Source: Candidatus Woesearchaeota archaeon CG10_big_fil_rev_8_21_14_0_10_44_13 (GTDB lineage: Archaea; Nanobdellota; Nanobdellia; Woesearchaeales; UBA12501). Taken from it: a stretch of DNA of 64,000 nt. Numbering within the stretch: the first letter of the stretch is position 1; each line of letters starts with the position of its first letter. The position numbers and the translations under genes are program-made. Below the pieces are notes generated by a model, which did no database searches, had not been told where the DNA came from, and was given only the letters and a program-made list of their open reading frames with translations. The stretch lies in assembly GCA_002762985.1 (NCBI GenBank), contig PCXZ01000030.1, forward strand, positions 80,399-144,398, read 5' to 3'. Shown one piece after another: positions 3,609 through 61,930 of this stretch.

Positions 3609-4289
3609 ATGACGACCAAAAAGACCTTTATTGTCATACCTGCATATAATGAGGAAAGGAAGATAGCAGGAGTGATAAAAGGGCTTAGGAGAGAGGGCTA
3701 CAGCAGCATAATCGTAGTTGATGACGGCAGCGAAGACGGCACATTCGATGCTGCCAGGAGAACAAATGCCATAATGTACAGGCATGCCCTGAACAGGGGC
3801 CTCGGCGGCGCTCTGGGCACAGGCATAAAGGCGGCGCTGGAAAGGGATGCAGAGATAATCGTGACATTTGACGCTGACGGCCAGCACAATCCGAAAGAGA
3901 TAAAGGATGTTCTCAGGCCAATAATTAAAGATGAGGCGGATTTCGTAGTCGGATCAAGGCTCATCAACCCGAAAGGCATGCCCTTTGTGAGGAGGGCCGG
4001 CAATTGGGGCTTTAATGTGATAACATGGATATTGTTCGGCGTATGGACCACTGATTCCCAATCCGGGCTGAGGGCTATGTCAAGATATGCAGCAGAGAAG
4101 ATCGAGCTGAAGACGAACAGGATGGAAGTGAGCTCTGAATTCTTCACAGAGATAAAGAGGAATGGCCTCAGGTACAGGGAAGTCCCCATAAGGGCCATAT
4201 ACACAAAATATTCCCTTGAAAAAGGCCAGAGCAGCCTCAATGGATTCAAGATACTTTTCAAGCTTGTCCTCAGGAGGGTAATGGATTAG
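3609..4289 (+). CDS. GT2 polyprenol/dolichol-phosphate glycosyltransferase (DPM1/ArnC-like)
   Basis: 'FIVIPAYNEE', 'VVDDGSEDGT' and a 'TFDADGQH' DxD region. The ORF track starts at TTG 3603, but the ATG at 3609 sits 26-35 nt after a TATA-like box. Confidence 0.8.
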   Translation: MTTKKTFIVIPAYNEERKIAGVIKGLRREGYSSIIVVDDGSEDGTFDAARRTNAIMYRHALNRGLGGALGTGIKAALERDAEIIVTFDADGQHNPKEIKDVLRPIIKDEADFVVGSRLINPKGMPFVRRAGNWGFNVITWILFGVWTTDSQSGLRAMSRYAAEKIELKTNRMEVSSEFFTEIKRNGLRYREVPIRAIYTKYSLEKGQSSLNGFKILFKLVLRRVMD

Positions 4290-23208: not shown

Positions 23209-24321
23209 TCAAGAATACTTAAAGAAACCCTGCCCTGATTTCCTTCCCAGCTTCCCTTCCTTGACCATCTTCACCATTATCCCTGCAGGAAGATATTTCC
23301 TGTCATTAGTCTTATTGCGGATATTGTTCATTATCTCGAGCACCACATCCAGGCCTATGAGGTCCATGAGGGCCAGCGGCCCCATTGGGTGATTCAAGCC
23401 GAGCTTTACTGCCTTGTCTATATCCTCTTTTGAAGCAACGCCTTCGCCATATATATGGGCAGCCTCATTCAGATAAGGCACCATTATCCTGTTGACTATG
23501 AAACAAGGGGAATCTTTTGTTATGACTGGTGATTTACCGAGCGTTTCTGCAAATTCCACTGCAAAATTCAGTGTTTTTTCGGATGTATTCTTCCCTTTGA
23601 CAACCTCTACAAGGGCCATCCTCGGCACAGGGTTGAAGAAGTGTATGCCCAGAAACCTTGACGGATCCTTTAAGTTCTCGCCAAGCTCATCAACTGAAAG
23701 GGAAGAGGTGTTTGTGGCTATCACTGCGTTTTTTTTGCATATCTTGTCGAGCTTCCTGAAGTATTCATCCTTTGTCTTCTTGTCTTCAACGACTGACTCT
23801 ATCACAAGATCTACATCCCCCAGGTCTTCTATTCTTGCAGAAGGCCTATACCTGCCCATGGCCTCATTTTTATCCTTTTCAGCCATGAATTTCGCCATGA
23901 ACCTGCTTATCTCTTCACCTGCCTTTTTCAGCCTGTCCTCTGTCCTGCTTATGAGACGGACTTCCATGCCGTGCATAAGCGCAACTTCGGCTATGCCCAA
24001 TCCTGTGACTCCTGTGCCAACAATACCCATCTTAAGGCCATGCAGTGAGCCTTTGTCTTTGCCTTTTCCTGCTGGTTCCAAGGTATGCCCTACATCATAC
24101 CTTACGCCTGATTTGATTATGCCAAGATTGCCCTGATCATCCTCCACAAGGACATCAAAATAAGGCACTTGCTTATGGTCAGAAGAAGGAACAAGAACTT
24201 CAGTGAATGCCTTGACTTTGAGCTTACTGTCCTTTTTCTCAGAGACCTCTGATCTGCAGAATATGCATCTCTTCACGTCATAATAATACACTTTTCCGCA
24301 TTTTTTACAGACGAATACCAT
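23209..24321 (-). CDS. Fusion protein: DUF35 (Zn-ribbon + OB-fold thiolase-associated scaffold) fused to 3-hydroxyacyl-CoA (3-hydroxybutyryl-CoA) dehydrogenase
   Basis: The N-terminus has CKKCG...CIFC (a rubredoxin-like ribbon) followed by an OB-like β-rich segment of ~90 aa. The C-terminus has a 'GIVGTGVTGLGIA' NAD-binding motif and an HBD catalytic region ('ATNTSSLSV', 'HFFNPVP'). Confidence 0.65.
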   Translation of the reverse strand: MVFVCKKCGKVYYYDVKRCIFCRSEVSEKKDSKLKVKAFTEVLVPSSDHKQVPYFDVLVEDDQGNLGIIKSGVRYDVGHTLEPAGKGKDKGSLHGLKMGIVGTGVTGLGIAEVALMHGMEVRLISRTEDRLKKAGEEISRFMAKFMAEKDKNEAMGRYRPSARIEDLGDVDLVIESVVEDKKTKDEYFRKLDKICKKNAVIATNTSSLSVDELGENLKDPSRFLGIHFFNPVPRMALVEVVKGKNTSEKTLNFAVEFAETLGKSPVITKDSPCFIVNRIMVPYLNEAAHIYGEGVASKEDIDKAVKLGLNHPMGPLALMDLIGLDVVLEIMNNIRNKTNDRKYLPAGIMVKMVKEGKLGRKSGQGFFKYS

Positions 24322-24357: not shown

Positions 24358-25494
24358 TCAATCTTCTTTCTTGAGTATGTGTATGACACATGTCCCTCCG
24401 ACCCCGCCTATGTTCTGCGCAAGCCCGATATTTGCACCTTTGACCTGCCTTTTTCCTGCTTCGCCCCTTAGCTGTGCCACAATCTCGCAGATCTGGGAAG
24501 CGCCAGTTGCGCCTATAGGATGCCCGTTAGCCTTCAATCCGCCGCCAGTGCCTATTGGTATTCTGCCATCGAGCTTTGTCTCCCCTTTCCTTACGAGATC
24601 CTTGCTCTCCCCGGGCTTGCAGAATCCCAAATCCTCCATCGCGACAAGCTCTGATATTGTGAAGCAGTCATGGACCTCGGCTATATCCACATCTTTTGCG
24701 GATATGCCTGCTTCCTTATAGGCCTCTGCTGCTGCAAGCCTTGTCGCCTTGAATGAGGTTATGTCCTTTCTCTGTGCAAGTGATATTGTGTCTGTTTTCA
24801 GGCTGGAAGCCAGGATCTTTATGTCCCTCTTTGATCTCTTTTCCCTTGACACGACAAGAGCAGCAGCTCCGTCACTTATTGGGCTGCAGTCAAAAAGCCT
24901 TAAAGGCGTGCAGACGATTGGTGATCTCTTTATCATATCAAGATCAACTTTTTTGTGGTAGAAATGCGCTTTCTCGTTGAGGTTTGCGTTCTCATGGGAT
25001 TTTAGGGCAACAAGCGCAAGATCATCAGCAGTCGTGCCATATTCTTCCATATGTTTCTTGGCTACGAGGGCGTATGCTGCAGGGAATATTAGGCCGTTGT
25101 TCTGGTCCATGCAACAGTCGCCGGCAGCGCATATGCCTTTTGTGAGCAATGAATTATCGATCCCATTCATCTTCTCTACCCCAAGGACAAGCACATTCTT
25201 GTATCTGCTTAGGGAGATTATCGCCTGATGCAGGGCTGCTCCACTCGATGAGCATGCAGTCTCGATCCTTATTATTGGGATATTAAGGCCAGGAAGAAGG
25301 CTTGATATGAGCGAGTTCATGTGAAGCTGGTTCTGCAAAATGCCGCCCAAGAAGTTCCCAACATATATCGCGTCTATCTCAGTTATGGGTATTCCGCTGT
25401 CTTCTATCGCATCGTACATTGCTTCATAAGCCAGCTCTGGCAGCCCTTTGTCCAGAACGCCGAATTTTGTCTTCCCGATCCCGCTTATATACAT
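24358..25494 (-). CDS. Thiolase (acetyl-CoA C-acetyltransferase, archaeal/SCP-x type)
   Basis: Thiolase-fold condensing enzyme. 'CSSSGAAL' around the active Cys, a C-terminal 'GHPIGATG' and 'GGVGG' are present. The ORF track start is 25515, but the ATG at 25494 (MYISGIGKTKFG) matches family N-termini. Confidence 0.7.
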   Translation of the reverse strand: MYISGIGKTKFGVLDKGLPELAYEAMYDAIEDSGIPITEIDAIYVGNFLGGILQNQLHMNSLISSLLPGLNIPIIRIETACSSSGAALHQAIISLSRYKNVLVLGVEKMNGIDNSLLTKGICAAGDCCMDQNNGLIFPAAYALVAKKHMEEYGTTADDLALVALKSHENANLNEKAHFYHKKVDLDMIKRSPIVCTPLRLFDCSPISDGAAALVVSREKRSKRDIKILASSLKTDTISLAQRKDITSFKATRLAAAEAYKEAGISAKDVDIAEVHDCFTISELVAMEDLGFCKPGESKDLVRKGETKLDGRIPIGTGGGLKANGHPIGATGASQICEIVAQLRGEAGKRQVKGANIGLAQNIGGVGGTCVIHILKKED

Positions 25495-25590
25495 TAAAAT
25501 ACACCTTATGATCATTCTATAATCATTCTATTATTCTTTCTTGCCCTTAATTATAAAAAGTTTTTGCATTGCCGGATTGATTGCAGGATT

Positions 25591-51884: not shown

Positions 51885-52032
51885 ACCCCTCTTGGGGTTT
51901 TATATTTTATGGAAAATATTTTATGAAAGATGATTTATTGAAATAAGATCATTTCTTTTTCTTCTTTTTCGGCTTTTCACAGCAGCAACATCCCATGATT
52001 GCACCTCCTTTTTATTAGTTCATCGAATCAAT

Positions 52033-52617
52033 CTAATTGCAGCACTTGTCATTGTTCGTTTTGACTTCATGGTATTTCGCATCATGGACGTCCATATCAT
52101 CTATCATATCCTTCTGCTGCCAGTCCTTGACCCATTGGCCCACTTCAAATATCTTTATCTTATTGTCTTTCGTGTTGCATATTACCCTGTTTATTCCTGC
52201 ATTGAGTATCATCTTCTTGCATATGAAGCAGGGCGATATGTCTATAAGGGTATTATCCCCGCCATATATCCTCTTGCCGAATATATACATGTCCGCCCCT
52301 TCTATGTTTGTCCCTGCCCTTGATGCGTTTATTATTGCGTTCTGCTCAGCATGGACGCTCCTGCACAGCTCATACCTGTGCCCTGAAGGGATATTCAGCT
52401 CCCGCCTCAGGCAGTTGCCCCTCTCCCAGCAGTCCTTTGTCTTCCTTGGGGCTCCGACATATCCAGTAGAGATTATCCTCTTATCCTTAACTATCAACGC
52501 GCCTATCCTTGCGCTCATGCAGGTGCCCCTTTCAGCGACATCCCTCGTTATAGCAAGGAAATACTCGTCCCATGAAGGCCTTTTTGAATGATCTTGCTGT
52601 TCTTGGTCTTTTGGCAT
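52033..52617 (-). CDS. dCMP deaminase (cytidine/deoxycytidylate deaminase zinc-binding family)
   Basis: 'HAEQNAI' and 'PCFICKKMI' zinc-ligand motifs. Confidence 0.8.
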   Translation of the reverse strand: MPKDQEQQDHSKRPSWDEYFLAITRDVAERGTCMSARIGALIVKDKRIISTGYVGAPRKTKDCWERGNCLRRELNIPSGHRYELCRSVHAEQNAIINASRAGTNIEGADMYIFGKRIYGGDNTLIDISPCFICKKMILNAGINRVICNTKDNKIKIFEVGQWVKDWQQKDMIDDMDVHDAKYHEVKTNNDKCCN

Positions 52618-52644
52618 TGTATCCCTTTTATATCTTATTGTTCA

Positions 52645-53205
52645 TTATTTATCCTTCTTTTTTAACAGATCATCGACATTTTTTCTCAGCTTTTCAAGTG
52701 AACCATCATTGATCATGGTTAAATCGGCCATGCCCATGCAGTTAAGCAATTGCTGGCCTGTCTTGCCCCCCTTGAGCTGGACTTCCTCCTGCCCCCTGAA
52801 TTTCTCGAAGCTGACAGAGTCCGAGGCCCTTTTCCTCAGCTTTATCCTGTCGTATCTCAGCTCTATCGGGGCATCGACTGCGATCAATATAAATCTTTTG
52901 TTTTTCTTCAATTCCTCTATTTCGGCAGGATTCCTTATGCTGTCCACTATGAAATCCTTATTTCCGTGCATTTCGCCTTCCTTTATCCTCTTGAGGACCC
53001 TCTTGCTCAATGTAGCAGGGCCTTCCTTTGCCCTCAGTTCGTTGCCTACTGTAATAAGGTTGTCAAGGCCCTCGTCAAGGCCTCTTTTTTTTACCTCTGC
53101 CCTTATTTCGTCAGACAATGAAGTGTATTCGAAGCCTTTCTCTTTCAGCATCTCTGCTACTGTGCCTTTGCCTGCGCCGTTTGTGCCGGTTAAACCTATT
53201 ATCAT
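52645..53205 (-). CDS. P-loop nucleotide/nucleoside monophosphate kinase family protein
   Basis: 'IIGLTGTNGAGKGT' Walker A in a ~185-aa NMP-kinase-sized protein. Context suggests a dNMP kinase, but the substrate is unknown. Confidence 0.4.
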   Translation of the reverse strand: MIIGLTGTNGAGKGTVAEMLKEKGFEYTSLSDEIRAEVKKRGLDEGLDNLITVGNELRAKEGPATLSKRVLKRIKEGEMHGNKDFIVDSIRNPAEIEELKKNKRFILIAVDAPIELRYDRIKLRKRASDSVSFEKFRGQEEVQLKGGKTGQQLLNCMGMADLTMINDGSLEKLRKNVDDLLKKKDK

Positions 53206-53247: not shown

Positions 53248-53886
53248 TCAATATTCTATCCCTCTTCTCGCCGAAACCCCCTTGTCGAAATAATGTTTCA
53301 CAAGCTTCATCTCTGTGACAAGATCAGCCTTCTCTATTATCTCCTGCGGGGCGCCTCTGCCTGTGAGCACAAGCTCTGTGTTCTTCGCTTTGTTCCTCAT
53401 CAGCGCAAGTACGGCCTCAGAGCTTATTATGTTCTTCCTCAGGGCATTATTTATCTCGTCCAATATCACAAGATCATATTCTCCTGAGACGGTTGCCTCT
53501 TTCGCATGCTCCATCGCTTCAAATGCCAATGCCTTCTCTTCCTGATCCTGCAGGAAGCAGTTCCTGCATTCCCCGCATTGTATATCTTCCCTTATGAAAT
53601 CGACAGGAAAACTGTCTTTCTCTCCGTCAAACCCTGAAAGCTTTAGCTGCCTCTGCTCCTTCACGCAGGGTTTGCCATACTGGTAGATCTTTATGTTTGG
53701 AAGATAATTTTTTATCGCTATATACTCGCCAGTATAAGCGCCGCCTTTGAGGAACTGGACTATGCAGACCTTGAGATTCTGGCCTGCAGCCCTCAACGCA
53801 ATCCCCATTGAGGTGGTGGTCTTGCCCTTATTATCCCCAGTATACACATGGACCATTCCCAGATTTTCCTTTCCCATCAAAACCAC
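53248..53886 (-). CDS. cobA: ATP:cob(I)alamin adenosyltransferase, CobA/CobO/BtuR type, with a Cys-rich insertion
   Basis: 'VYTGDNKGKTTTSMG' P-loop and 'VQFLKGG...ILDEIN...HYFDKGV' CobA core. A 4-Cys insert (C-x22-C-x2-C-x2-C) lies in the middle. Confidence 0.7.
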   Translation of the reverse strand: MVLMGKENLGMVHVYTGDNKGKTTTSMGIALRAAGQNLKVCIVQFLKGGAYTGEYIAIKNYLPNIKIYQYGKPCVKEQRQLKLSGFDGEKDSFPVDFIREDIQCGECRNCFLQDQEEKALAFEAMEHAKEATVSGEYDLVILDEINNALRKNIISSEAVLALMRNKAKNTELVLTGRGAPQEIIEKADLVTEMKLVKHYFDKGVSARRGIEY

Positions 53887-53923: not shown

Positions 53924-56110
53924 TCAAGAGCAGTAAGAGTAGCCGCACGAAGGGCATGTGGCGCAGCCGCTCTCGAACTTGAGCTTGCTGCCGCACTCAG
54001 GGCATATCTCATCCCTCTGCTCTTCCTTCTTCTCCTCTTTTTTCTTGGCTTTTTTCTCCTCAGCATCTGTGACATCTATGTTCAATACCTGCTCGCCCCT
54101 GCTCCTGTCCCTGTAGACCGTAACGCCTTTGCATTTAAGCTTGTAAGCCTGCATATACACGTTCTCGACGTCCCTTGTTGTGGCGCTGTGGGGGAAATTC
54201 ACTGTCTTTGACACTGCATTGTTCGTGTATTTCTGGAATGCGGCCTGCATCCTGACATGCCATTCAGGCGTCACATCATGCGCAGTCACATAGACCTTCT
54301 TCACGGACTTTGGTATCTCATCGAAGCTGTGCAGTGATCCCTTGTTCGCTATCTTCTTCAGCAGATCTTCAGAATAGAACCCTTTTTCCCTGGATATGAT
54401 CTCAAAATACTTGTTTGTGTACAGGAGATCCTGGCCGTCCATGACCCTTTTTATGAAAGATATGGCGAACAATGGCTCTACGCCGCTGGCTACATCCGCT
54501 ATCATGCTTATCGTGCCCGTTGGAGCGATAGTAGTCCTTGTCGCATTCCTTACCCTATCCTCTTTCTTGCCAGTGTCATAGATGCTGCCCTTGAAAGCAG
54601 GGAAAACTCCCCTTTCTTTCGCCAGCTCTGCTGATTTTGCCATGGCCTCATCATCTATGAACTTCATGACCTTCTCTGCGAGCTTCAGGGCTTCTTCAGA
54701 ATCATATGCCAGGTCAAGCTGGAACAGCATGTCAGCCCACCCCATCACACCTAATCCTATCTTCCTTGTCTTCAGGGTCTGCTCTTTTATCTTATCTATC
54801 GGATAAGAGTTCATGTCTATGACATTGTCAAGGAAATGCACGGCCTGATGTATGATCTTCCTCAGCTTCTCGTAATCGACTTCCCCATCCCTGACAAAAT
54901 TCGCCAGGTTTATTGAGCCTAGATTGCACGACTCGTAAGGGAGCAACGGCTGTTCTCCGCAGGGATTTGTGCTCTCGATCTCGCCTAAGTTCGGAGTCGG
55001 GTTGTATTTGTTTATCTCGTCTATGAAAACTATGCCCGGATCCCCGTTCTTCCATGCCATCATCACTATGAGATCGAATATGCCCCTTGCAGGGACTTTC
55101 CTGATGGCCTCTTTCGTCCTGGGGTTCAAGAACTCGAATTCCTTGTCCTTCTCGAGCGCCTTCATGAACTTTTCTGTCAAAGCCACTGAGAAGTTGAAGT
55201 TGTTGAATACATTGTCCTTCTCTTTTGCGACTATGAAATCCATTACGTCAGGATGGTCGACCCTCAGGATGCCCATGTTCGCCCCTCTTCTCTTCCCGCC
55301 CTGTTTTATCACGTCAGTGGCCGCATCAAAGACCTTCATGAAAGACAATGGCCCTGATGATACCCCTTTCGTCGATTTCACCCTGTCGCTCTTCGGCCTC
55401 AGCCTTGAGAATGAGAATCCTGTGCCTCCGCCGCTCTTGTGGATCAATGCGGTGTTCTTTATGGCATCGAATATCTCCTCCATAGAATCGCCAACGGGCA
55501 ATACGAAGCATGCTGAAAGCTGCTGTATCTCATTGCCTGCGTTCATCAAGGTGGGGGAATTCGGCAGGAAATCAAGGTTCGCCATCATCTCATAGAAAGA
55601 CTGCTCTACTTCCCTCGCTTCATCTTCTTTTGCGCCGTGCTTCCTGTCAGCCGAGGCTATGTTCCTGGCCACTCTCCTGAAAAGCTGGTTAGGCGTCTCT
55701 ATGATGTTCCCGTCGTTGTCCTTCCTGAGGTATCTTTCGCTCAGCACTTTAAGCGCATTCACGCTGAGCTTTGTCTCGACAAGCCTTCCCATCACTGCTG
55801 TCTTCTCTGCCCTCAGCTCGCTCCTCTTCTGCCTGTAGAGTATGTATTCCTTCGCTGTCTTCGCGTGGCCTGTCTTCATGAGAACCTTTTCGACAGTGTC
55901 CTGGACTTCCTCGACTGTAGGTATCTTTTTTCCGTCAAAGATGGCGTTCAGCTCGTCAGCGACCATGGCAGAAAGCTCCTCTGCAATCTTCCTGTCCTTT
56001 CCGCCCACTGACTCTGCTGCCTTGAATATGACATCTGTTATCTTCTCTTTATCGAAATCGACTATCCTTCCGTCCCTCTTCTTTATCTTCTTAACATCTG
56101 TGTCTGCCAT
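53924..56110 (-). CDS. nrdJ: Adenosylcobalamin-dependent ribonucleotide reductase (class II, NrdJ) with N-terminal ATP-cone and C-terminal zinc ribbon
   Basis: N-terminal ATP-cone ('VKKIKKRDGRIVDFDKEKI'), an RNR 10-stranded-barrel core, and a C-terminal 'CPECG...CATCPSCG' ribbon. Confidence 0.85.
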   Translation of the reverse strand: MADTDVKKIKKRDGRIVDFDKEKITDVIFKAAESVGGKDRKIAEELSAMVADELNAIFDGKKIPTVEEVQDTVEKVLMKTGHAKTAKEYILYRQKRSELRAEKTAVMGRLVETKLSVNALKVLSERYLRKDNDGNIIETPNQLFRRVARNIASADRKHGAKEDEAREVEQSFYEMMANLDFLPNSPTLMNAGNEIQQLSACFVLPVGDSMEEIFDAIKNTALIHKSGGGTGFSFSRLRPKSDRVKSTKGVSSGPLSFMKVFDAATDVIKQGGKRRGANMGILRVDHPDVMDFIVAKEKDNVFNNFNFSVALTEKFMKALEKDKEFEFLNPRTKEAIRKVPARGIFDLIVMMAWKNGDPGIVFIDEINKYNPTPNLGEIESTNPCGEQPLLPYESCNLGSINLANFVRDGEVDYEKLRKIIHQAVHFLDNVIDMNSYPIDKIKEQTLKTRKIGLGVMGWADMLFQLDLAYDSEEALKLAEKVMKFIDDEAMAKSAELAKERGVFPAFKGSIYDTGKKEDRVRNATRTTIAPTGTISMIADVASGVEPLFAISFIKRVMDGQDLLYTNKYFEIISREKGFYSEDLLKKIANKGSLHSFDEIPKSVKKVYVTAHDVTPEWHVRMQAAFQKYTNNAVSKTVNFPHSATTRDVENVYMQAYKLKCKGVTVYRDRSRGEQVLNIDVTDAEEKKAKKKEEKKEEQRDEICPECGSKLKFESGCATCPSCGYSYCS

Positions 56111-56219
56111 CTTATGCCTCCTCTTTTTTACTGAATCATTGTTTTTTCTTTGTTTTTATCGGTTTTTAGTTTTTTTACCGGCTTAACTTTTATTTTCCTT
56201 CATTTTATCACGTTGAGAT

Positions 56220-56666
56220 TCATTTCTTCAGCTTTCCGAGCTCCTCTTCAAAGGATTTCGGATCATTAAACTCCTTATAGACAGAAGCGAACCTCAGATA
56301 AGCCACATCATCAGTCTTTTTCAGCTTTTTCATGACTATGTCTCCTATAGACCTTGCAGGGATCTCCTTCTTTCCCTTGTTGAGTATATCAGATTCTATG
56401 TCATCGACCATCCCTGCCAGCATCTCATCGCTTATGGGCCTTTTCTCGCATGCTTTCCTCATGCCCAGAAGTATCTTCTCGCGGTCAAACTCCTGTTTTG
56501 AGCCGTCTTTCTTTATCACTGAAAGGGAAATCTGGAAATTCTCGTATGTCGTGAAGCGTTTGCTGCACTTGAGGCATTCCCTTCTGCGCTTTATAGAACT
56601 AGAATCAGGGCTATCCCGCTTGTCCATCACCTTGCTTTCAGCATGGGAGCAGTATGGGCACCTCAT
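56220..56666 (-). CDS. nrdR: Transcriptional repressor NrdR (zinc ribbon + ATP-cone)
   Basis: 'MRCPYCSHAESKVMDKR...RRRECLKCSKRFTTYE' zinc ribbon, followed by an ATP-cone with a 'VAYLRFASVYKEF' end. The ATG at 56666 is preceded by GAGGAG, and the longer track ORF (to 56792) is an N-terminal over-extension. Confidence 0.8.
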   Translation of the reverse strand: MRCPYCSHAESKVMDKRDSPDSSSIKRRRECLKCSKRFTTYENFQISLSVIKKDGSKQEFDREKILLGMRKACEKRPISDEMLAGMVDDIESDILNKGKKEIPARSIGDIVMKKLKKTDDVAYLRFASVYKEFNDPKSFEEELGKLKK

Positions 56667-56722
56667 TTTTACACTCCTCTGAATAACCTCTTTTTTGACG
56701 TTTGTTACTTCAAGATAAAGAA

Positions 56723-56769
56723 ACACAATATCTTGTGTTTTCCAAGATAAAAACCACAATATCTTGTAT
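56723..56769. promoter_or_regulatory. Tandem NrdR boxes (two 16-bp palindromic operators, centre-to-centre 31 bp) upstream of nrdR-nrdJ
   Basis: ACACAATATCTTGTGT (56723-56738) and CCACAATATCTTGTAT (56754-56769) match the NrdR-box consensus acaCwAtATaTwGtgt. Each sits inside a ~31-bp direct repeat (CAAGATAAA...). Confidence 0.65.
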
Positions 56770-56925
56770 CTGTAAGGAAATCTGTTGAGCATTATAAATA
56801 TTCTTATTGTGTGGAATATATTTTTAGTAGATTGTATTTGGTAGGTTGTTTTTTAGGACAACTTAGCTGTTTTTTTGATATTTTTGAAAAAAATAGAGAA
56901 AAGTAAAAGAAAAAAATAATAAAAA

Positions 56926-57381
56926 TCACGCCTTATACACTATATCCCCTTCCCTGACCTTGTCGATGACCTTCATGCCTATCTCCTGGCCTTTCTTGGC
57001 CTCTGTGACCTTGTCATGGTCTATCTGCATCGATTCGACCTTCTGCTTCAGGTTGGTGGTCGCTCCTTCTATGGATATCACATCGCCGGCCTTGAGGCTG
57101 TTTTCAATCTTCACTACTGCGACGCTTATGTGCGAATAGAAATGGGTGACTTCGCCTATCTTTGTCCTCTGCACAAGCTTTGCGGCCGGTTTCACTGCCC
57201 GTTTCAGTGAGGATTTCTTTGCCGCTGCCTTCTTTGCGGGCTTTGCTGCCTTTCTCATCACTTTTTTCTTAACGGCTTTCTTTGCAGCTTTCGCTCTCTT
57301 GAATTTGGGTTTCTTTGATGCCTTTGACTTAGAAGCCTTTTTTGGCTTGGATTTTGCCTTCTTTTTTGCCATATATTTCAC
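56926..57381 (-). CDS. Lysine/alanine-rich (histone H1-like tail) DNA-binding protein with C-terminal β-barrel domain
   Basis: The N-terminal ~75 aa are AKK/PAKK repeats, and a C-terminal ~75-aa β-rich domain follows. A TATA box and a GGAGG-like SD lie upstream. Confidence 0.45.
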   Translation of the reverse strand: MKYMAKKKAKSKPKKASKSKASKKPKFKRAKAAKKAVKKKVMRKAAKPAKKAAAKKSSLKRAVKPAAKLVQRTKIGEVTHFYSHISVAVVKIENSLKAGDVISIEGATTNLKQKVESMQIDHDKVTEAKKGQEIGMKVIDKVREGDIVYKA

Positions 57382-60537: not shown

Positions 60538-61065
60538 ATGGGGGGAAAGATAGTCGTTGTTGACGAGAAGGATAACTTCCTGAGGGAAGAGGAAAAATCG
60601 AGATGCCATGAGGGAGAAGGGATGCTCCATAGGGCATTCTCTGCGTTCATATTCAATGATAAGAACGAGCTTCTTATCCAGAAGAGGAGCAGGTTCAAGG
60701 TATTATGGCCCATGCACTGGAGCAATAGCTGCTGCAGCCACCCAATAAAAGGCGAAACCTATGAAGGGGCGGCAGAAAGGAGGATAAGAGAGGAGCTCGG
60801 CATCAGCTGCAAGATGAGGCTGCTTTTCAAATTCCAGTACAGCGCAAAATATGGCGATATCGGCTCTGAGAATGAGCTTTGCGCTGTCCTCGCAGGGAGA
60901 TGCGGCAGTAAAATAAAGATTGGCCCTGACCCAAAGGAGATAGCAGAATTCAAATTTGTTGATGTCAAAGAACTGAAAAAGGACATTGAAAAAAATCCTG
61001 ATGTATACACTCCATGGTTCAAGATGGAGCTTGGAAGGGTATTGAAAGAGATGATGATGGGATAG
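60538..61065 (+). CDS. idi: Isopentenyl-diphosphate Δ-isomerase, type 1 (Nudix)
   Basis: 'HRAFSAFIFN', 'WSNSCCSHP' (catalytic Cys) and a Nudix 'GAAERRIREELGI' box. Confidence 0.75.
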   Translation: MGGKIVVVDEKDNFLREEEKSRCHEGEGMLHRAFSAFIFNDKNELLIQKRSRFKVLWPMHWSNSCCSHPIKGETYEGAAERRIREELGISCKMRLLFKFQYSAKYGDIGSENELCAVLAGRCGSKIKIGPDPKEIAEFKFVDVKELKKDIEKNPDVYTPWFKMELGRVLKEMMMG

Positions 61066-61078
61066 AGAATATGCGAAG

Positions 61079-61930
61079 GTGGTCAAAATCGAAGTGATGC
61101 TTGCTGAACATATGGGTATGTGCAATGGGATGAGGAAGGCAGTGAAACTTGCTGAAGAGACGGCTGAAATGTACAGAGGCAACGGCGGGGTCTATATGCT
61201 CGGCCCGATCGCCCATAACCCCCATGTCATGGCCTATTTCAAGGAGAAAGGAGTGGTGAAAGTTGATTCTATCGACGAGATAAGGGCAGAAGCAGGGACA
61301 GTGATAATAAGGGCGCATGGCGTTCCTGACAGCGTCAAGAAGAGTGCTGCAGAAAGGGGGATGAATGTAGTTGATGCTACATGCAATCTTGTCCTTAGAT
61401 CGAAAGATATCGCAAAGATGCTTGAAAATGAGAAATACAAAGTTGTTATCTATGGCGAAAAAAAACATCCTGAGATAATTGGCATAGCAGGGAATCTTGC
61501 TGACCCATTGATTATTGAAGATCTTGACCAGGCAAGAAGCCTCAGTTTATACAAAACAATGGGCCTGATAGCACAGACTACAAGCATGCCTGAAAAATAT
61601 GCTGAGATACAGAAAGAGCTCAGGGCCCATTGTGAATGCCTCAGGATTGAGGATACGATATGCATGGCGACGCAGAACAGGCAGGACTCAGGAAGAAAAA
61701 CAGCCGAAAGGGCAGAATTGATGCTTGTCGTAGGCGATGCAAGCTCATCAAACAGCATGAACTTACTCAAGGCATGCAAGGAGGTCAATGAGTATACTTT
61801 CATGGTCAGCGATGCATCTGGCCTGAAGCCAAACTATTTCAAGGGGATAAAGAAGATCGGCCTTACTGCGAGCGCATCTTCTCCTGAATGGGTCATAAAT
61901 GGCATCGTCAATGCATTAAGGGGCATGTAG
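61079..61930 (+). CDS. ispH: 4-hydroxy-3-methylbut-2-enyl diphosphate reductase (IspH/LytB)
   Basis: IspH blocks 'GMCNGMRKAV', 'GPIAHN', 'RAHGV', 'DATCNLV', 'GEKKHPEIIG', 'QTTS', 'ICMATQNRQ', 'LVVGDASSSNS' and 'GLTASASSPE', plus three cluster Cys. Alternative starts at 61097 or 61112 are possible. Confidence 0.8.
   Translation: MVKIEVMLAEHMGMCNGMRKAVKLAEETAEMYRGNGGVYMLGPIAHNPHVMAYFKEKGVVKVDSIDEIRAEAGTVIIRAHGVPDSVKKSAAERGMNVVDATCNLVLRSKDIAKMLENEKYKVVIYGEKKHPEIIGIAGNLADPLIIEDLDQARSLSLYKTMGLIAQTTSMPEKYAEIQKELRAHCECLRIEDTICMATQNRQDSGRKTAERAELMLVVGDASSSNSMNLLKACKEVNEYTFMVSDASGLKPNYFKGIKKIGLTASASSPEWVINGIVNALRGM

Follow-up and report, generated by a model that had tools for sequence, protein, structure and literature searches.

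The window, by which we mean the whole 64-kb stretch of DNA that was analysed, carries on its minus strand a gene for the repressor NrdR, followed by nrdJ, which encodes a class II RNR, and by genes for a corrinoid adenosyltransferase, a nucleotide kinase-like protein and a deaminase. Two NrdR boxes lie upstream of nrdR, and a TATA-like element lies upstream of the boxes. The coordinates of all these features, with the evidence on which each was assigned, are given in Table 1.

Table 1. Features of the nrdR locus, in window positions. L016 is a Woesearchaeota MAG and L017 and L018 are metagenome contigs; boxes and spacer are given in the minus-strand reading.
Feature	Position	Strand	Evidence
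dCMP/cytidine deaminase family, likely fifth and last gene	52033-52617	minus	profiles; order kept in L016
P-loop nucleotide kinase-like (AAA_17/AAA_18), likely fourth gene	52645-53205	minus	profiles; order kept in L016-L018
cobA/btuR, ATP:corrinoid adenosyltransferase, likely third operon gene	53248-53877	minus	PF02572, 194.9 bits
nrdJ, adenosylcobalamin-dependent class II RNR with N-terminal ATP-cone	53924-56110	minus	profile matches
nrdR-nrdJ gap, 109 nt, coding strand A-rich	56111-56219	minus	GAGGAGG before nrdJ ATG
nrdR, Zn-ribbon + ATP-cone repressor, 148 aa	56220-56666	minus	profile matches, full-length structure alignment
Shine-Dalgarno-like GAGGAG, 8 nt before nrdR ATG	56674-56679	minus	sequence
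Proximal NrdR box ACACAAGATATTGTGT	56723-56738		1 mismatch to ACACWATATWTWGTGT, 6/6 key positions
15-bp spacer between boxes TTTTTATCTTGGAAA	56739-56753		sequence
Distal NrdR box ATACAAGATATTGTGG	56754-56769		3 mismatches to ACACWATATWTWGTGT, 6/6 key positions
TATA-like TTTATAAT, candidate archaeal nrdR promoter	56791-56798	minus	aligns with invariant ATATTTAAATA of three relatives
T-rich tract (T5-T7 runs), likely archaeal oligo-T terminator	56886-56925	minus	directly after upstream gene stop

An earlier note on this DNA had described an intact nrdR ahead of nrdJ on the same strand, and the profile searches bear this out. The nrdR product passes the NrdR equivalog TIGR00244 with 184.5 bits (cut-off 124.65) over residues 1-146 of 148. 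Both domains are present, the zinc ribbon at residues 1-42 (PF22811, Zn_ribbon_NrdR; 68.9 bits) and the ATP-cone at residues 49-135 (PF03477; 82.6 bits), as are both CxxC pairs, C3/C6 and C31/C34. The protein aligns end to end with the E. coli NrdR structures (9gex/9fxk; E ~1e-38 to 4e-38) and with that of S. coelicolor (7p37; E 1e-34). NrdR contacts DNA through D15, R17 and an RRRR motif (PMC9110341); D15 and R17 are kept in the window protein and the motif reads K26-R27-R28-R29. The inner and outer nucleotide sites of S. coelicolor NrdR are formed by V48, K50, R51, E56, F58, K62, K69, Q72, F124, V127 and Y128 (PMC9110341). In the alignment to 7p37, eight of these 11 residues are identical (V48, K50, F58, K62, K69, F124, V127 and Y128), and the three that differ do so conservatively (R51K, E56Q and Q72E). 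Judged from its sequence, the window protein appears to have all the residues needed for NrdR function. Translation from the ATG at 56666 gives the N-terminus MRCPYCSHAESKVMDKRD..., and all homologues begin with M[RK]CPYC. A longer ORF of 190 aa (56220-56792), in which this ATG lies in frame, was rejected as an artefact that runs on upstream through the operator; the 190-aa version is found in some public gene calls (P0241).

We defined an operator as a pair of 16-bp boxes, each in part palindromic, that lie 15-16 bp (or 25-26 bp) apart and precede an RNR operon. The canonical spacer between NrdR boxes is 15-16 bp (PMC13584703, PMC12051234), and the critical positions within a box are C4, A6, A8, T9, T11 and G13 (PMC13584703), all of which are kept in both boxes of the window. 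Two canonical boxes in 31-bp phasing, 57-103 nt upstream of nrdR, had been reported previously, and these positions proved exact. The boxes are 31 bp apart from start to start and occupy -57 to -72 (proximal) and -88 to -103 (distal) relative to the nrdR ATG. On the minus strand, the order is ...AATATTTATAATGCTCAACAGATTTCCTTACAG-ATACAAGATATTGTGG-TTTTTATCTTGGAAA-ACACAAGATATTGTGT-TTCTTTATCTTGAAG...(41 nt)...ATG. None of 300 first-order Markov simulations of the window held a box pair at 30-33 bp, and therefore the pair is real and far beyond chance. Even a single site with at most one mismatch turned up in just 0.7% of the 300 simulated windows. The earlier note had raised the possibility that box matches occur at random frequency; in the 64-kb window, just one other site with at most three mismatches was found, at 4201 and intragenic. 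A third box, one 31-nt step further upstream than the distal one, was looked for and not found. The boxes and their flanks were also considered as a 31-bp tandem repeat, a reading that was rejected, with an ungapped identity of 22/31 and no such repeat reported by TRF. When the upstream regions of four Woesearchaeota loci were aligned (alignment A1), the TATA element and both boxes stood out as conserved islands in diverged DNA. The proximal box is the best-conserved of these islands, and the position of the distal box is common to L016-L018.

The enzyme encoded downstream was identified at 1025.5 bits by NF006417 (cut-off 961) and at 754.6 bits by TIGR02504 (cut-off 399.95). NrdJ consists of an ATP-cone (residues 8-98), an all-alpha domain and the RNR barrel (PF02867, PF00317), so the statement that it has its own ATP-cone was correct. 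The cobA product makes the NrdJ cofactor. From nrdR to the deaminase gene, the gaps measure 109, 46, 42 and 27 nt (at other archaeal loci, nrdR lies 4-14 nt from nrdJ or nrdD). None of the four gaps, including those between nrdR and nrdJ and between nrdJ and cobA, contains a coding-strand run of five or more Ts or a TATA with at most one mismatch. The nrdR-nrdJ gap was also searched for NrdR boxes and none was found, and a scan for intrinsic terminators detected no minus-strand terminator within the operon. The placement of cobA after nrdJ is conserved in L016-L018. A five-gene transcript, nrdR-nrdJ-cobA-kinase-dCMP deaminase, is the likely arrangement. The autoregulated nrdR-nrdJ operon proposed earlier is likewise likely, from the boxes upstream of nrdR, the gaps without T-runs and the conserved gene order.

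Another explanation, which we consider unlikely, is that NrdR autoregulates only itself and that nrdJ and the genes downstream are transcribed from an NrdR-independent promoter in the 109-nt gap. For an operon junction this gap is long, with room for an internal promoter; it is A/T-rich and contains AAAATAAAAG, and nrdJ has a strong Shine-Dalgarno (SD) sequence of its own, but no TTTAWATA with at most one mismatch occurs at a distance of up to 100 nt from the nrdJ ATG, and the coding strand of the gap has no T-run terminator. The distance from nrdR to the RNR gene behind it is 4-57 nt in seven other archaeal loci, and no NrdR target beyond RNR operons was found in the literature searched.

The candidate nrdR promoter, TTTATAAT, sits within AATATTTATAATG (56790-56802). 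It has two mismatches to TTTAWATA and is weaker than the TATA elements of the relatives, and the ATATTTAAATA with which it aligns is invariant in the upstream regions of L016-L018 in alignment A1. Its start is 29 nt upstream of the distal box, compared to 16-19 nt in most relatives, and this distance is due to a 13-nt insertion. TTTATAAT may well serve as the nrdR promoter. A spacing of 28-33 nt between TATA and ATG is the signature of archaeal leaderless transcripts, and the TATA elements of the leaderless genes in the window start 28-33 nt before the start codon. If the same spacing governs the start of nrdR transcription, the predicted start would fall inside the 47-bp operator in archaeal loci; more precisely, it would meet the distal box at its upstream edge in the window and lie within that box in the relatives. 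The earlier note had credited most neighbouring genes with a TATA box near the ATG. This applies to 11 of the 59 predicted genes, which have TTTAWATA with at most one mismatch at -28 to -33 from the ATG.

We consider it improbable that the TATA element lies instead inside the operator, as the spacer motif TTTTTATC or as the TTCTTTATC that follows the proximal box, with NrdR competing with TBP/TFB and not covering the start site. A TATA-like TTTATCTTG does occur 2-3 nt after each box in the window, but the spacer motifs are absent from L016-L018, where the upstream ATATTTAAATA is invariant, and about a dozen archaeal loci again have their TATA ahead of the distal box.

On the other side of this promoter, a gene on the same strand (56926-57372) is followed right after its stop by the 40-nt T-rich tract. 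Between 51900 and 57000, the coding strand has no other cluster of runs of five or more Ts, besides one T5 in the operator spacer, and the tract likely separates the upstream gene from the nrdR promoter. A sigma-70 scan found no promoter at the boxes, and an Rfam scan of the window found no B12 or other riboswitch in the nrdR leader. The GGAGG-like SD that had been noticed before nrdR is present as GAGGAG. It had been taken as a sign of foreign origin, a reading that does not hold, since an SD is also found at other genes of the window, leadered or internal (GAGGAGG precedes nrdJ), and the leader of ~100 nt that houses the operator explains the SD of nrdR.

It is probable, in our judgement, that the locus of this Woesearchaeota (DPANN) archaeon is a functional operon for dNTP supply, controlled by NrdR and autoregulated. 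The genes, the boxes with their significance and conservation, the placement of TATA and operator across archaeal loci and the archaeal origin of the contig were observed directly, while the start site, the co-transcription of the five genes, the nucleotide-dependent binding and the repression are inferred. Transcription would proceed from the archaeal TATA promoter at ~56791-56798 and begin ~100 nt ahead of the nrdR ATG, where the distal box has its upstream edge. NrdR of S. coelicolor and E. coli forms an oligomer that does not bind when it carries only ATP; with dATP together with ATP (or ADP), it sits as a tetramer on both boxes (PMC9110341, PMC12176259). By analogy with these solved bacterial proteins, the ATP-cone of the window NrdR would sense nucleotides. 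When dATP rises relative to ATP, NrdR carrying dATP and ATP (or ADP) would form a tetramer, and the two Zn-ribbon pairs of the tetramer would bind the boxes 31 bp apart, kinking the DNA. The bound tetramer would hinder the recruitment or escape of RNA polymerase and leave the TATA accessible. Since the 47-bp operator would cover approximately +1 to +47, the block is expected at RNA polymerase and not at TBP binding. With ATP alone, NrdR would assemble into an oligomer that does not bind, leaving the operon expressed. The enzyme's own ATP-cone may provide additional tuning of NrdJ activity.

There is only a slight chance that the boxes are a decaying relic, or that this NrdR lacks nucleotide-dependent DNA binding. 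The three nucleotide-site residues that differ from S. coelicolor could be read in this way. Set against them are the six critical positions kept in both boxes, the full-length NrdR with its DNA-contact residues intact, and the conservation of the boxes among relatives despite diverged flanks. The circuit had been called still functional, and from the kept residues and boxes this is very probably so.

The contig is archaeal and belongs to a Woesearchaeota MAG (DPANN), in keeping with the archaeal-looking genome described in the earlier note. The exact NrdR protein is NCBI PIN86320.1, which carries a Woesearchaeota label and lies on a 153-kb contig. Besides the 11 genes with a leaderless-type TATA and the archaeal relatives of NrdJ, four archaeal families score above their cut-offs: TIGR00024 (SbcD_rel_arch), PRK01229 (N-glycosylase/DNA lyase), PRK13767 (helicase) and PRK06064 (thiolase). 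The gene order helicase/EF-Tu-D2-like/nrdR/nrdJ/cobA/kinase/deaminase/ogg is also found in the Woesearchaeota MAG L016 and in the metagenome contigs L017 and L018, the NrdJ proteins of which are 76-79% identical to that of the window. No tRNA, rRNA/Rfam or ribosomal protein genes were found in the window. That the contig is bacterial (e.g., CPR/Patescibacteria) and misbinned, so that the locus would be an ordinary bacterial nrdR-nrdJ operon, is barely conceivable: CPR NrdRs are about as similar to the window NrdR as archaeal ones (46-55% identity) and the window holds bacterial-looking ispH and idi type 1 genes, but the 11 TATA octamers at -28 to -33 follow leaderless archaeal promoter grammar, the boxes are without a sigma-70-like promoter, the four families above pass their cut-offs, the relatives of NrdJ are archaeal, the synteny is common to NCBI Woesearchaeota MAGs, and NCBI labels PIN86320.1 as Woesearchaeota.

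The view that NrdR is essentially bacterial, expressed in the earlier note, is out of date. Cassettes of nrdR-nrdAB were published in Halobacteriales (Lundin et al. 2010, PMC3019208), NrdR has been described as present in 'some archaea' (PMC9110341), and according to a 2026 paper it occurs in 22% of genomes from archaea and in 77% of those from bacteria (PMC13584703). NrdR continues to be described as missing from archaea in some papers (bioRxiv 2025.03.28.645925). Many of the best matches to the window NrdR are archaeal; among the best 120, 12 of the 16 named proteins belong to Woese-, Aenigm-, Micr- or Nanoarchaeota or to an unclassified 'archaeon'. In the literature searched, we found no mention of NrdR together with DPANN or its phyla, and apparently no archaeal NrdR that has been studied biochemically.

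Archaea (Woese-, Alti-, Micr-, Bathy-, Odin-, Aenigm- and Promethearchaeota) make up the overwhelming majority of the best 120 relatives of NrdJ, alongside a few Patescibacteria. NrdJ is therefore not a bacterial import, and the bacterial-type parts of the system, as far as sequence comparison can tell, are only NrdR and its operator. In GC and GC3, nrdR is close to the window average (z = -0.03 and 0.34, respectively), and its position is common to the relatives. Therefore, any transfer would be old. The idea of a horizontally acquired bacterial circuit stands for NrdR and its operator, which are of bacterial type, and fails for NrdJ, which is archaeal; nor would the acquisition be recent, given the native GC and the shared synteny. 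Phylogeny had been suggested as a way to the donor lineage. In a neighbour-joining tree of 27 labelled NrdRs, only shallow clades reached at least 80% bootstrap and archaeal monophyly was not supported. With its backbone unresolved, no donor lineage can be named for NrdR; for NrdJ, the relatives are archaeal.

Archaeal nrdR loci were gathered by exact-protein look-ups, a genome scan and a metagenome scan, and the single-protein scan of genome contigs provided seven loci, none of them from the window's own genome. Where nrdR is directly before nrdJ, a box pair with a 15-16 bp spacer is found upstream, as seen in the window, L009, L013, L014 and L016-L018. A pair with this spacing is also found at L012, where nrdR precedes nrdD-nrdG, and the upstream sequence of L003 is identical. 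L004 has the same kind of box pair upstream of nrdR. At L011 and L015, archaeal loci where nrdR does not adjoin an RNR gene, there are no boxes upstream, and therefore autoregulation is not universal. TTTAWATA with at most one mismatch was located 16-33 nt upstream of the distal box in L004, L009, L012, L013, L014, L016-L018, L071, L074 and L080, all of which have a pair of boxes spaced by 15-16 bp ahead of nrdR; across about a dozen archaeal loci, the distance from TATA to distal box spans this same range and is most commonly 16-19 nt.

The promoter type goes along with a single residue of NrdR. Of the 12 archaeal-labelled matches, 10 have K at residue 16, which lies between the DNA-reading D15 and R17; all four bacterial-labelled ones have S there. 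Loci of the S16 type, which is bacterial-like, have box pairs with TTGACA-like hexamers and mostly no TATA. Among loci with a good operator, TATA was present at nine and absent at two with K16, and present at one and absent at 11 with S16 (Fisher p = 6e-4). The K16 count leaves out L009, which has both K and a TATA; with L009 included, the K row becomes 10 versus 2. The sole S16 locus with a TATA, L013, is labelled 'archaeon'. Archaeal NrdR itself was already known, and the window locus adds another case. The one modestly new point concerns DPANN archaea: the conserved placement of the operator relative to the TATA, with K16 as a signature.

The closest known counterpart is nrdRJ of S. coelicolor (7P37, 7P3F, 7P3Q), in which NrdR autoregulates a class II RNR (PMC9110341). 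Both systems have the order nrdR-nrdJ and two 16-bp boxes with a 15-16 bp spacer upstream of nrdR, and both repressors combine a Zn-ribbon with an ATP-cone and share D15, R17 and most nucleotide-site residues. Unlike those of S. coelicolor, the window boxes lie downstream of a TATA in an archaeal host and not over a -35/-10 promoter, NrdJ is of archaeal lineage, and the operon extends to cobA, the kinase gene and the dCMP deaminase gene. The window NrdR also has K16 in place of S and is without the long C-terminal tail (148 versus 195 aa). The nrdR-nrdAB and nrdR-nrdBA arrangements of Halobacteriales are similar in that an archaeal nrdR lies directly upstream of RNR genes (PMC3019208). There, the whole class I cassette, regulator and enzyme, is a bacterial import (PMC3019208), whereas in the DPANN loci NrdR goes with class II enzymes of archaeal type and, in Aenigmarchaeota L012, with class III enzymes. 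The CPR loci L007 (Woesebacteria) and L008 (Paceibacterota) resemble the window in NrdR (46% identity) and in having paired boxes just ahead of nrdR, theirs with a 16-bp spacer, but they have a TTGACA-type -35 upstream in place of a TATA octamer, and their residue 16 is S.

Archaeal repressors such as MDR1, LrpA and Phr have their binding sites at the transcription start or downstream of it and keep RNA polymerase from being recruited. The window operator is placed in a similar way, just downstream of the TATA and overlapping the predicted start. These repressors belong to families unrelated to NrdR, for which the effector is the dATP/ATP pair and the bound form is a tetramer across two boxes.

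NrdR is pursued as a bacteria-specific antibacterial target and is a model of an ATP-cone-driven switch. A sizeable archaeal lineage with the same repressor and operator on TBP/TFB-type promoters is worth knowing of. The archaeal loci also offer a natural test of whether repression by NrdR depends on the basal transcription machinery, and a simple, well-defined circuit for DPANN, in which gene regulation is little understood. What the window locus itself yields is mainly annotation: the operator, the promoter, the extent of the operon and a corrected start codon for nrdR.

The broader reading of these loci, to which we give an even chance, is that DPANN archaea (Woese-, Aenigm-, Nano- and some Micrarchaeota) own an old lineage of NrdR, recognisable by K16 in the D-x-R triad that reads DNA. 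Its operator would have been re-wired onto archaeal promoters, it would repress RNA polymerase at the start of transcription, and it would control native class II or class III RNRs together with cobA and dCMP/dCTP deaminase; exchange with CPR bacteria of the same groundwater habitats is possible. Within such a lineage the operator would hold a fixed position, with 16-19 nt as the usual distance from the start of the TATA to that of the distal box.

The 9-mer TTTATCTTG was found 2-3 nt after each of the two NrdR boxes that precede nrdR, and this repetition is confined to the lineage of the window. Compared to three related Woesearchaeota loci with the same gene order (L016-L018), the window also carries a 13-nt insertion in the interval between the TATA-like element and the distal box. 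The repeated 9-mer and the insertion suggest that a recent local duplication or conversion remodelled the operator. Upstream of the nrdR TATA-like element, an (A/C)TATATT(C/A)C block was kept in all four Woesearchaeota loci (the window and L016-L018). It is adjoined by a 14-bp direct repeat, TTTAGTAGATTGTA, present in 2.2 copies. The block and the repeat could represent a second promoter element or the site of another regulator. The coordinates of these and the other features are listed in the table.

Among the public gene calls, those of JGI, ENA and Logan contain a 190-aa version of NrdR (database protein P0241), which begins at an upstream ATG and runs across both NrdR boxes. The correct call is the 148-aa protein of NCBI. 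Within this protein, residue 16 was compared with its database matches and with other nrdR loci. Nearly all archaeal-labelled NrdRs have lysine at this position and bacterial-labelled ones have serine; among the 120 best NrdR matches, 52 carried DKR and 63 carried DSR. In the nrdR loci compared, K16 goes together with a TATA box ahead of the operator.

The gene directly upstream of nrdR is conserved in position among related Woesearchaeota. The N-terminal half of its product is very rich in lysine and alanine, resembling a histone H1 tail, and the C-terminal part is a beta-barrel like domain 2 of EF-Tu, as seen from weak matches to PF16325 and EF-1alpha.

At the downstream end of the probable dNTP operon, the kinase-like and deaminase genes gave weak partial matches to separate halves of NF041025, a model of a fused "anti-phage dCTP deaminase". 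The scores were 58 and 54 bits against a cut-off of 400, and the two genes are split in the window as opposed to fused in the model. The pair is most likely a housekeeping dNMP kinase and dCMP deaminase within the dNTP operon. Between the dCMP deaminase gene and ogg lies a 15-codon micro-ORF (MGCCCCEKPKKKKKK*) with GGAGGTG ahead of it. In L016 the deaminase gene and ogg are 5 nt apart, and the micro-ORF is not conserved there.

Inteins with LAGLIDADG homing endonuclease domains occur in many of the archaeal NrdJ genes that follow nrdR, and for one such gene (locus L009) the gene call is broken into two. An Aenigmarchaeota locus (L012, GCA_012974965.1) has the order nrdR-nrdD-(small NRDD fragment)-nrdG-cobA-dcd. 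The corrinoid adenosyltransferase gene is therefore in one operon with the genes of a class III RNR, a B12-independent enzyme. rpoN lies on this contig as well.

Elsewhere in the window, the gene for a type 1 isopentenyl-diphosphate isomerase adjoins ispH/lytB, which encodes the final enzyme of the bacterial MEP pathway. In this DPANN archaeon, ispH looks like a bacterial-type gene. The isomerase gene and ispH share the archaeal contig with an archaeal-type thiolase gene. The thiolase gene adjoins a gene in which about 95 aa of Zn-ribbon/OB (DUF35-like) sequence are fused to the N-terminus of a 3-hydroxybutyryl-CoA dehydrogenase, which is an unusual partner for a DUF35 module. A large gene cluster takes up about two thirds of the window. 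It encodes glycosyltransferases and sugar-nucleotide epimerases/dehydratases, and it also contains genes for large membrane proteins, for asparagine synthase-like proteins and for sialic-acid-type synthesis. Judging from N-terminal sequences alone, this cluster looks like a cell-surface glycan island.

Coordinates of features in the window and in the loci compared
Feature	Location	Strand	Matches or counterparts
Putative glycan island	window 1-43000		
DUF35-like/3-hydroxybutyryl-CoA dehydrogenase fusion	window 23209-24321	-	
Archaeal-type thiolase	window 24358-25515		
Micro-ORF	window 51949-51996	-	
Kinase-like and deaminase genes	window 52033-53205	-	
190-aa NrdR call	window 56220-56792	-	P0241
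Codon of NrdR residue 16	window 56619-56621		compared over top matches P0001-P0120 and loci L002-L098
NrdR boxes with repeated 9-mer	window 56708-56769		
(A/C)TATATT(C/A)C block	window 56813-56821	minus-strand reading	
14-bp direct repeat	window 56823-56853	minus-strand reading	
Gene directly upstream of nrdR	window 56926-57372	-	L016 1766-2029; L017 1730-2203
Type 1 isopentenyl-diphosphate isomerase	window 60538-61065	+	NF002995, 154 bits
ispH/lytB	window 61097-61930	+	TIGR00216, 242 bits
Intein-bearing NrdJ examples	L009 2968-6962; L014 4467-7937		P0125, P0128, P0131 and others
Aenigmarchaeota nrdR locus	L012 4001-8410
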